Under the pieces are notes generated by a model, which was not told the DNA's origin, did not search any database, and worked only from the letters and a program-made list of their open reading frames with translations. From assembly GCF_030253515.1 (NCBI RefSeq), contig NZ_CP124549.1:330001-362000 (forward strand): 32,000 bases of DNA. The letters are read 5' to 3'. Numbering within the stretch: the stretch's first letter is position 1; each line of letters starts with the position of its first letter. Both the position numbers and the translations under genes were made by a program. The stretch comes from Candidatus Nanosynbacter lyticus. GTDB taxonomy: Bacteria > Patescibacteriota > Saccharimonadia > Saccharimonadales > Saccharimonadaceae. Of the stretch, positions 30,648 through 32,000 are shown piece by piece.

Positions 30648-31568
30648 TCACGTCACCAGTCCTTTGCTAAACAATATACTTTCCGCGATAAATAGACGCA
30701 GCGCCTCCAGCTCGCCGCGAACCTGCGCTCGCTCCAGATAGGTATAGTACGCTCGCTTGCGCTCTTTGGCGACGAGGGGTGGCACCAACCCCAGTTGTAG
30801 GGCCTGGACAAAGAGCAAGAGTCGCCCGGTGCGACCGTTGCCATCGCTAAACGGATGGATTTTTTCAAATGTCGCATGAGTACGGGCTAGCCATTCTATC
30901 GGCTCTGTTTTGGGTAATTTGTTCATTTCGTCAACACACTCGGACATCGCTTCAGTAATGCGCAGATGGTTTACTGTTGTGACGCGACTACCCATGATGC
31001 GCACACCGTGCCGGCGGTAGAGTCCGGCGTCAGACACCAGCGTGTTCATCAGCCGGACGTGCGTTTGCAAGATCAGCTCTTCGCTCCACGTAAAATGCGT
31101 CCCTTCTTTGTGTAAGGCATCCAGCAGAAAGTAGAGCGCAGTACGGTGGTTACGGGCCTCTATCTGTTCGCGCGCTGTCTTGTTGGCGAGGACGCGATTA
31201 TCATCGTTCAGCACCTCTGCGACGTCCGCTAGGGTCATTGTGCTACCCTCGATCGTGTTCGTGTGGTAGGTCAAGTGGAGCGTCAGGATGTCAAGTAATT
31301 CTTGATTCGCCAGGAGTGTCCGGATCGTCATGCGGCTGGCCTGGGCGGCACGTTCAGTAGCGAGGCGCTTCGCCTCGTCGATGGTGTCCCGCCCGAGCAT
31401 CTCTTGATGTAATAGCTGAATATTCGCCAGGTTTTTGGCACGCGGCGACATATGTTGGTGTACCCAGGCGTTGAGCGTACGCACCGGCACATCTAGGCGA
31501 CGCGCCAGTTGTTCTTGGGTAAGGCCTGTCCGCACCAGAATTTCTTGGAGTAATTGCGCAGCATTCAT
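30648..31568 (-). CDS. HTH (XRE-type) plus Fic-domain protein (AMPylase-type Fido enzyme with an intramolecular inhibitory motif)
   Basis: N-terminal HTH (LTQEQLARRLDVPVRTLNAWV), Fic motif HPFSDGNGRTGR, and upstream TNTIEG matching the (S/T)xxxE(G/N) inhibitory helix. Confidence 0.9.
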   Translation of the reverse strand: MNAAQLLQEILVRTGLTQEQLARRLDVPVRTLNAWVHQHMSPRAKNLANIQLLHQEMLGRDTIDEAKRLATERAAQASRMTIRTLLANQELLDILTLHLTYHTNTIEGSTMTLADVAEVLNDDNRVLANKTAREQIEARNHRTALYFLLDALHKEGTHFTWSEELILQTHVRLMNTLVSDAGLYRRHGVRIMGSRVTTVNHLRITEAMSECVDEMNKLPKTEPIEWLARTHATFEKIHPFSDGNGRTGRLLLFVQALQLGLVPPLVAKERKRAYYTYLERAQVRGELEALRLFIAESILFSKGLVT

Positions 31569-31620
31569 GTCGTGATATTACCAAAACATCATGATGTTTG
31601 TCAAATAGCACGATGTTTGC
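31569..31620 (-). promoter_or_regulatory. Promoter TTGACA-N18-TAATAT placed 6 nt before the Fic ATG, with a 16-bp perfect palindrome AAACATCATGATGTTT (31584-31599) in the spacer and a further GATGTTTG copy at 31612-31619
   Basis: The minus strand reads gCAAACATCgtgctaTTTGACAAACATCATGATGTTTtggTAATATcacgacATG. Confidence 0.6.
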
Positions 31621-31639
31621 TAGGAGTCTGATGGTATGG

Positions 31640-32000
31640 TGGCGAGAGTCTTTGGGGTGTACGAGTGGCTACCCCTGCCCGACAATCACCCCCAAAAAGG
31701 TGAAATCCCCGCGTCATCGTTGACGCGGGGTGGTGGACTCAAGCGGTTCTGCTCGGAGTTGATCTCATCGCTGAGAAAAACTGCTACGAGTGAACTCGCG
31801 AGTCCGGGGCTTAGGGCCCCGCCGACCAGATGCATCCGGATACACCTGGTGGCGGGGTGGAGGCTATCTATAGATAGCCTCCTTGGGGCTCTTCCCGGGG
31901 CCCTTCCGGGAAGAGCGAGGGGCGAAAACGATGCTGTTTTCGCTGCAGACTGGCCCGTTGGGGCACTAGCTTGTCTGCCATACATCGCGCGCTATTGAGC
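31640..32000. ncRNA. Hairpin-dense non-coding region; candidate large structured RNA of unknown class, truncated by the window end
   Basis: At least 8 consecutive near-perfect stem-loops: 31707-31730 (10 bp), 31805-31821, 31817-31857 (12 bp plus bulge, competes with the previous one), 31859-31882 (24-bp palindrome), 31888-31916 (11 bp), 31922-31943 (8 bp), 31945-31978. ORFs are open on both strands but do not look like proteins. Confidence 0.35.

Follow-up and report, generated by a model that had tools for sequence, protein, structure and literature searches.

Large 'ornate' bacterial non-coding RNAs such as GOLLD, ROOL and OLE often adjoin tRNAs, and pre-4.5S RNA is a substrate of RNase P. 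The locus analyzed here, from Candidatus Nanosynbacter lyticus, touches on both kinds of system. Like GOLLD, ROOL and OLE, it appears to encode a long, multi-helix, lineage-restricted RNA near tRNA-like sequence. It differs from them in having no Rfam match, no phage context, and no middle section that is conserved across the genus.

The source genome (labeled G000) is complete, 824 kb long and 51% GC. We analyzed a window of 32,000 nt from it (G000:C1:330001-362000); unless genome positions are specified, coordinates below refer to this window. At its end, positions 31640-32000 had been described in a first-pass annotation as a chain of perfect hairpins forming a candidate structured RNA. A check of the sequence found every one of the listed hairpins in place, and the region folds beyond expectation from shuffled sequences on both strands: the minus strand has an MFE of -181.2 kcal/mol, compared with -126.6 ± 5.3 kcal/mol for dinucleotide shuffles (z = -10.3), and the plus strand has an MFE of -179 kcal/mol (z = -5.4 relative to dinucleotide shuffles). 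For the full 405-nt minus-strand unit, the MFE is -210.9 kcal/mol and z is -9.75. Read on the minus strand from 5′ to 3′, the order of elements is a tRNA-like module (32014-32088), the hairpin array (31806-32013), a rod-shaped hairpin together with an ACCA tail (31731-31805), and an intrinsic terminator (31690-31730). Past the window end, the minus strand carries the tRNA-like module, a mini-ORF of 48 codons with a DnaJ-type zinc finger, and a gene for a PD-(D/E)XK nuclease. An rRNA operon, an IS110/IS605 gene and a reverse transcriptase, the types of neighbor envisaged in the first-pass annotation, are all absent from this flank. A promoter scan called no minus-strand promoter upstream of the unit. 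Inspection by eye shows a TTGACT-17-TATAAA pair on that strand ahead of the mini-ORF. Also seen by eye is a likely pseudoknot between the loop GAUUC and the leader GAAUC, which in the source genome takes the form of GAUC with GAUC.

We searched the window end and the surrounding 3.5 kb against Rfam 15, both at gathering thresholds and at E ≤ 10. The only match was a sub-threshold one to the tRNA-like part of tmRNA, in agreement with the earlier view that the RNA is of unknown class, and literature searches found no account of this RNA. Judged from its sequence, the locus is an undescribed structured non-coding RNA restricted to Nanosynbacter, a genus of oral Saccharibacteria.

The rod forms the conserved core of this locus. 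It is a 71-nt irregular long hairpin on the minus strand (31735-31805; GGACUCGCGAG...CGCUUGAGUCC), directly followed on its 3′ side by ACCA (31731-31734). Its stem sequence and bulges are almost invariant across the genus and its tip varies; most members of the genus have RCC(A/G/C) on the 3′ side of the rod, CCAU being the single exception. The intrinsic terminator (31690-31730, minus strand) consists of CCCCGCGUCA-ACGA-UGACGCGGGG followed by AUUUCACCUUUUU, and the corresponding tail in relatives is UUUUCUCCUUUUU. Its perfect 10-bp stem at 31707-31730 corresponds to the pair CCCCGCGTCA/TGACGCGGGG of the first-pass annotation. BLAST detected rod and terminator in 96 of 131 species-level genomes of the genus, including 67 of the 79 high-quality ones, and in none of 16 other genera of the order. 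The rod and terminator stems are 80-100% identical to those of the source genome.

A covariance model of rod plus terminator (R1), built from 14 sequences, matched the source genome at 31692-31807 with 130.6 bits and recovered 73 of 80 dus-anchored loci in related genomes. Applied to 150 other genomes of the order, it returned nothing convincing, the one borderline match scoring 24 bits. The 73 matches comprise 60 distinct sequences. In their alignment, which was itself fitted to the model, pairing reaches 98.1% of cells, and both sides have changed in 27 of 34 pairs. None of 500 shuffles equaled the covariation of the rod, and slid controls also fell far below it. In the same alignment, seven of the nine pairs of the terminator stem show changes on both sides. 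By analogy with RNase P substrates such as pre-4.5S RNA, the rod may be matured like a tRNA-type minihelix. It resembles 4.5S (small SRP) RNA in being a long, irregular hairpin, about 70 nt in size, whose bulges are conserved and whose paired ends are followed by RCC(A), but it lacks the GNRA-capped domain IV motif. Small SRP RNA as an identity was ruled out: RF00169 and RF01854 gave no match at E ≤ 1 or E ≤ 10, and the genome encodes neither Ffh nor FtsY (SRP_SPB, the SRP54 GTPase domain and an SRP-type P-loop context are all absent).

The tRNA-like module, 75 nt on the minus strand, lies just beyond the window end (32014-32088, equivalent to G000:C1:362014-362088). It has a 7-bp acceptor stem with a G3·U70 pair and a canonical T arm; a D arm, a 7-nt anticodon loop and an encoded CCA are missing, and its 3′ end is A-CUG. 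The G3·U70 pair is found in 14 of 15 aligned genomes that share the array family of the source genome, and is A·U in the remaining one. A second module type with A3·U70 is also carried by relatives, and the stems of the module covary among relatives. In its G3·U70-bearing acceptor stem, its T arm, and a helix that replaces the anticodon arm, the module is similar to the tRNA-like domain of tmRNA (RF00023), against which it scores 37.2 bits, under the gathering score of 47. Unlike tmRNA, however, it has 18 nt where the RF00023 model has 310, without an mRNA-like domain, an internal pseudoknot body or an encoded CCA, and the hairpins of this locus follow the closed module on its 3′ side rather than being contained in it. 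A second or permuted tmRNA was rejected on architecture and because the genome has a genuine tmRNA, located at genome positions 129785-130182 (92.4 bits). We also rejected a tRNA gene, given the missing D arm, anticodon loop and CCA and the absence of a tRNA call by ARAGORN at the locus, where the program reported a 'tmRNAp' at relaxed threshold only. The genome has 43 bona fide tRNA genes, which serve all 20 amino acids, and CCA is encoded in 43 of 43.

The array between these two modules is composed of seven hairpins on the minus strand, numbered here from its 5′ end. H1 (31979-32008, running across the window end at 32000) pairs CAUACAUUGC with GCGAUGUAUG around a loop and exists in two allelic forms among relatives, each of them a hairpin. 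H2 (31945-31978), in which GCAGAC...GUCUGC surrounds GCCC-CAAC-GGGC, shows more compensatory changes than any other array helix: both sides have changed in 5 of its 10 pairs. H3 (31922-31943), GCGAAAAC-loop-GUUUUCGC, which had been listed earlier as GCGAAAAC/GTTTTCGC, is paired in 99% of cells and shows one double change from A·U to G·C. In the MFE structure of the full unit, a 5-bp helix formed by CCCUC (31917-31921) and GAGGG (32010-32014) joins H1-H3 as a tight four-way junction with linkers of 0-1 nt. The GAGGG strand of this helix starts past the window end; the helix is also part of the consensus fold (helix 6), where its changes are of the wobble type only.

H4 (31888-31916) is an 11-bp perfect stem, GCUCUUCCCGG/CCGGGAAGAGC, which had been noted before as GCTCTTCCCGG/CCGGGAAGAGC. 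Its core, CCCGG/CCGGG, is invariant, and its outer pairs, compared by eye, differ on both sides by allele (G·C and C·G in the source genome, A·U and A·U in G053). In 10 of 15 relatives, H4 is followed by an extra hairpin, CCCCCGAAAGGGGG. H5 (31859-31882) is a perfect loop-less palindrome of 24 nt, GGAGGCUAUCUAUAGAUAGCCUCC; relatives have two allelic forms of it, and both fold as hairpins. H6 (31817-31857) combines a 12-bp stem with one bulge, CCCCGCCACCAG/CUGGU(C)GGCGGGG, with a hypervariable loop: 14 of 15 genomes retain the stem, and the loop occurs in at least four unrelated versions. H7 (31805-31821; GGGGC-CUAAG-CCCC), whose arms overlap the end of the rod and the 3′ arm of H6, is missing in four relatives (G048, G114, G095 and G047) and from the consensus fold.

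The first-pass annotation had presented the 12-bp helix and the small hairpin at 31805-31821 as competing structures, and had taken such mutually exclusive pairings as a hallmark of functional RNA. The 12-bp helix, H6, is indeed conserved; the small hairpin competing with it is not. The other alternative pairings had been proposed for the 5′ side of the region, at 31646-31696. Since the terminator reads on the minus strand and the plus strand lacks a T-run after the 31707-31730 stem, these pairings are located downstream of the terminator; they occur only where the Fic cassette is present and are outside the RNA. Mutually exclusive pairings in this region are thus either external to the RNA or not conserved, and do not serve as a hallmark here.

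We next consider how the array varies across the genus. Among 61 genomes with both the tRNA-like module and the rod, the distance between the two is 29-41 nt in 29 genomes, 136-145 nt in six, and 176-318 nt in 26. The short-slot genomes have one hairpin of 26 nt in a slot of about 37 nt. The long arrays make up three families that are mutually unrelated by BLAST, and the family of the source genome has 19 members in the set. In 15 aligned members of this family, single hairpins have between two and four widely differing alleles, which are combined as a mosaic among genomes. Hairpins also turn over as whole units: CCCCCGAAAGGGGG was gained after H4, H6 and H7 were lost in G098, and H4-H7 were replaced in G006 and G052. 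The consensus structure of the array, drawn from 15 species-level genomes, has 94.2% of its cells paired, with changes on both sides in 14 pairs. Slid controls are 41-51% paired and none of 500 shuffles reach the observed values, statistics that overstate the significance because the counts rest on a structure taken from this very alignment and on genomes that share ancestry.

Compensatory changes in related genomes were found in the array as well as in the rod, and this conservation of structure upholds the view, taken in the first-pass annotation, of a structured RNA of unknown class; the hairpins belong to a larger non-coding unit. Identity of the array to that of the source genome is 74-91% in paired columns and 44-85% in unpaired or loop columns; for the flanking nuclease gene, identity at third codon positions is 77-82%. 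Compared with these codon positions, the array sequence drifts at or above a near-neutral rate while its pairing is kept. No other part of the locus is as poorly conserved as the array, which has the look of an expansion segment or spacer rather than of a functional core.

Our preferred reading, to which we assign a probability of roughly 55%, is that 31690-32000, continuing to 32088, makes up the 3′ portion of a non-coding transcription unit on the minus strand, whose transcription, RNA ends and processing we infer, and that the array within this unit is an expansion segment or spacer. From 5′ to 3′, the unit would consist of a variable mini-ORF, 5′ hairpins, the tRNA-like module, the array, the rod with ACCA, and the intrinsic terminator, so arranged that the array would separate two tRNA-like ends as an internal spacer or expansion segment at the RNA level. 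Selection would preserve the pairing of the stems and the four-way junction of H1-H3. The sequence, loops, hairpin number and length of the array would turn over fast, by allele replacement and by gain and loss of whole hairpins. RNase P-type and 3′-end processing at the tRNA-like module and the rod may excise the array or leave it as a scaffold. The array itself may insulate folding and block exonucleases, with sequence-specific function residing in the rod and the tRNA-like module.

It is possible, if doubtful, that the array is instead an integral functional domain of one 'ornate' non-coding RNA of about 0.4-0.5 kb, for example a protein scaffold or a tRNA mimic. Such a domain would fit the junction into which H1-H3 are closed, with linkers of 0-1 nt, whichever of the two allelic forms is present, the near invariance of the H3, H4 and H6 stems over 15 species, the minus-strand G·U bias described below, and the very low folding energy of the full unit. 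The four-way junction and the conserved stem sequences of H3, H4 and H6 could indeed indicate a specific function rather than a mere spacer. However, about half of the genus has the single 26-nt hairpin in the slot, and the same slot is filled by three unrelated array families; even within one family, a genome does without H6 and H7, and two others have H4-H7 replaced. Furthermore, the loops and linkers are the most variable parts of the array, and tertiary contacts or ligand pockets would show the opposite.

We consider it rather unlikely that the array is the working domain of a new class of Nanosynbacter non-coding RNA of about 0.5 kb. The full RNA might then comprise a pseudoknotted 5′ module, an anticodon-less alanine-type tRNA-like module, the junction and hairpins, and an RCCA-ended rod. 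As a mimic of tRNA it might serve as a scaffold or decoy, or it might be a bacterial counterpart of the 3′ tRNA-like structures of plant-virus RNAs that stabilizes or controls the variable mini-ORF message upstream of it. If this were true, the fast turnover of hairpin alleles would amount to diversifying selection at the interface between epibiont and host or with phage.

An explanation at the DNA level, that the hairpins are palindromes without RNA function, produced and kept perfect by template-switch (quasipalindrome-correcting) replication errors or produced by small palindromic insertions, and accumulating in a tolerant intergenic slot, is improbable, even though several stems are perfect and hairpins are gained, lost and replaced as whole units. 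A contribution of template-switch mutation to the perfect hairpins is suggested by loop-less perfect palindromes like H5, and the perfection of H5 through its center, beyond what is needed at the RNA level, hints at a DNA-level origin by template switching. A·C deviations occur as well, numbering 33 versus 92 G·U. To score strands neutrally, arrays were folded without G·U and isolated 1x1 mismatches in Watson-Crick stems were then counted. In this test, 25 mismatches were G·U on the minus strand, 6 were A·C (that is, plus-strand G·U) and 11 were others, events that are not independent as the genomes are related. The consensus fold of the array is slightly better on the minus strand (-139.5 versus -131.4 on the plus strand), and in single-genome folds the minus strand was the more stable one in 13 of 17 genomes. 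The retention of pairing at a divergence equal to or greater than that of third codon positions likewise speaks against palindromes without an RNA function. Taken together, the G·U bias and the shared orientation of the terminator, the rod and the tRNA-like module argue that a minus-strand RNA is under selection, and we predict that the functional strand is minus.

Copy number bears on the same question. Each hairpin, searched with blastn-short against the whole source genome, gave self matches only, and hairpin alleles from 16 relatives had 0 matches elsewhere in that genome and did not resemble its in-frame palindromic inserts. BLAST of the locus in 131 genomes of the genus yielded just 1-2 matches per genome, all confined to the rod and the tRNA-like module. 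A dispersed or mobile palindromic repeat was accordingly rejected, every hairpin being single-copy and present in relatives only at the same locus. The array resembles REP/BIME and Rickettsia palindromic elements in that it clusters GC-rich perfect hairpins in a small genome; it differs from them in that its hairpins are single-copy and occupy the same locus in relatives.

The surroundings of the terminator address the suggested connection with Fic. The segment between the terminator and the Fic promoter (31640-31689, minus strand) is outside the RNA. It co-occurs with the HTH-Fic cassette and is missing in class-L relatives without Fic (G114, G095 and G065), where the terminator runs into GTGCTATAAT. 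In most loci the R1 match ends about 21 nt ahead of the start codon of dus. Elsewhere it is positioned roughly 400-1100 nt upstream of that gene: in the clade of the source genome, HTH-Fic occupies a gap of about 1 kb, and in the remaining loci the distance is roughly 400-800 nt. More than 20 loci have Fic or an insert of about 400-650 nt between terminator and dus, and the RNA is retained in them. Nucleotide identity among these genomes is 95-97.5% for Fic, higher than the 89-92% of the flanking nuclease gene, which suggests that Fic is a recently spread cassette. Given these identities and the distribution of Fic and other cassettes in the gap, the position of the RNA upstream of the Fic promoter appears to be an accident of insertion. 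Fic is best explained as an unrelated cassette inserted between the terminator and dus, and the link to its promoter drawn in the first-pass annotation is incidental, as in most relatives the RNA end is directly followed by dus.

These arrangements also make it very improbable that the structure is a cis-regulatory leader, riboswitch or attenuator, of Fic or dus. In most genomes the rod and terminator do lie directly upstream of dus, and a terminator followed by a gene resembles the layout of an attenuator. Yet the RNA persists in loci where cassettes separate the terminator from dus, which makes a leader function for dus unlikely. In addition, Fic has its own called promoter, no Rfam riboswitch matched at E ≤ 10, and there is no conserved alternative anti-terminator pairing. 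By eye, dus has an extended -10 of its own (TGATAAAAT) at a leaderless distance after the U-tract.

That the region is a protein-coding gene, in an open frame of about 100 codons on either strand (ORFs of 120 aa on the plus and 99 aa on the minus strand are present), has next to no chance of being true: the longest stop-free stretch changes frame and varies erratically from 32 to 153 codons among 17 relatives, array length differences are not multiples of 3, the frame through the rod in G020 meets a stop (by eye), and variation tracks base pairs, not codons, in line with the earlier judgment that no credible CDS is present.

Several further identities were examined and set aside. A divergent RNase P RNA had been suspected from a CAGAACCGCUUGAG motif; the real RNase P RNA gene is at genome positions 126683-127026 (258.7 bits), and the Rfam search for RNase P RNA gave no match at the hairpin locus. 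The search for 6S RNA had no match anywhere in the genome. A cluster of terminators was excluded, a U-rich tail being present after the 31707-31730 stem only and the terminator scan calling none within 31806-32013. A replication terminus or dif site was dismissed on position, the skew maximum being at about 405 kb versus 362 kb for the locus. A phage origin was likewise discounted: five exact 18-mer matches in viral contigs are attributable to chance, since the covariance model finds nothing in those contigs.

According to a transcriptome preprint on TM7x, no small RNAs have been validated in this organism (10.1101/2022.03.25.485537). The locus provides a concrete, covariation-backed small-RNA candidate for Saccharibacteria, a genus-wide rod with a tRNA-like partner. 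In the slot between these two elements, multi-hairpin segments arise, diversify and are replaced within one genus, and the locus offers a natural system for studying the origin of RNA expansion segments. It also bears on the respective shares of RNA-level selection and palindrome-correcting mutation in the 'compensatory' evolution of hairpins. For genome annotation it carries a warning: the long GC-rich 'ORFs' of this locus do not represent genes, nor does the tmRNA-like match represent a second ssrA.

Among known systems, the variable arms of RNase P RNA and tmRNA and the 16S-23S ITS have in common with the array a location between conserved modules, which here are tRNA-like and look processed. 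The array departs from the ITS and from expansion segments in that its flanks are neither rRNA nor true tRNAs, it follows an mRNA-like mini-ORF, and it contains a four-way junction. Like them, it is an array of stems that is length-polymorphic between close relatives, is built of mosaic blocks, and conserves pairing more than sequence. With its conserved RNA flanks, its length polymorphism and its pairing kept without sequence, the array has the features of a structured spacer.

Directly 5′ of the tRNA-like module (window 32014-32088), the minus strand carries a set of hairpins together with the leader AAAAGAAUCA (L001, the genomic stretch around the window end, 2100-2170; window ~32099-32169), and comparison with the equivalent positions in relatives revealed that both are conserved. 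The GAAUC of the leader is complementary to GAUUC in the loop of the preceding hairpin. In the Candidatus Nanosynbacter lyticus genome (G000), GAUC replaces the motif at both pairing sites. Judged by eye, the leader-loop pairing resembles a pseudoknot in which the two strands have changed in a compensating way.

Further 5′ on the same strand, the mini-ORF that precedes the RNA (L001 2190-2333; window ~32189-32332) occupies a variable slot. The close relatives compared (loci L034-L049) encode small proteins here (48-58 aa) that are unrelated to one another, namely DnaJ-type CxxCxGxG proteins, proteins of two other zinc-ribbon types, or Lys/Ala/Arg-rich peptides. Upstream of the slot, the region with the promoter and leader is still 84-90% identical among relatives.

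The tRNA-like modules themselves are of several types, and some genomes (loci L017-L021, L071, and L101) carry them as a tandem pair separated by ~250 nt. In one type, the D arm (GCUC...GAGC) is properly formed and a long hairpin takes the place of the anticodon loop. Acceptor stems vary with module type (GGGUGUG, GGACAUG, or GGACGCG); despite these differences, complementarity to the partner strand is always kept.

On the other side of the RNA, the HTH-Fic gene plus ~50 nt (window 30648-31689) behaves like an inserted cassette that lies between dus and the terminator of the RNA. Some of the class-L relatives (G114, G095, and G065) lack it. Between species, the cassette is 95-97.5% identical and the flanking nuclease gene 89-92%. 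In relatives without Fic, dus appears to have its own extended -10: the candidate, TGATAAAAT, overlaps the end of the terminator U-tract, ~21 nt ahead of the ATG of dus. At that distance from the ATG, the mRNA would have no leader or almost none.

Searches of the whole G000 genome, which is closed and 99.6% complete, found no match to either SRP RNA model (RF00169 and RF01854). The Ffh M domain (PF02978) and the SRP54-type GTPase domain (PF00448) were likewise absent, and the genome therefore encodes neither Ffh nor FtsY. Across 41 genomes of the order, the SRP search gave matches at the P-loop level only (≤ ~23 bits), while 14/14 control genomes gave matches. The SRP pathway is thus not detectable in G000 or these 41 genomes. 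The genuine tmRNA of G000 lies elsewhere on the contig (C1:129785-130182; RF00023, 92.4 bits). ARAGORN missed it at default settings, and its T arm, CCGGGGGCAGUACCCGG, is unusual.
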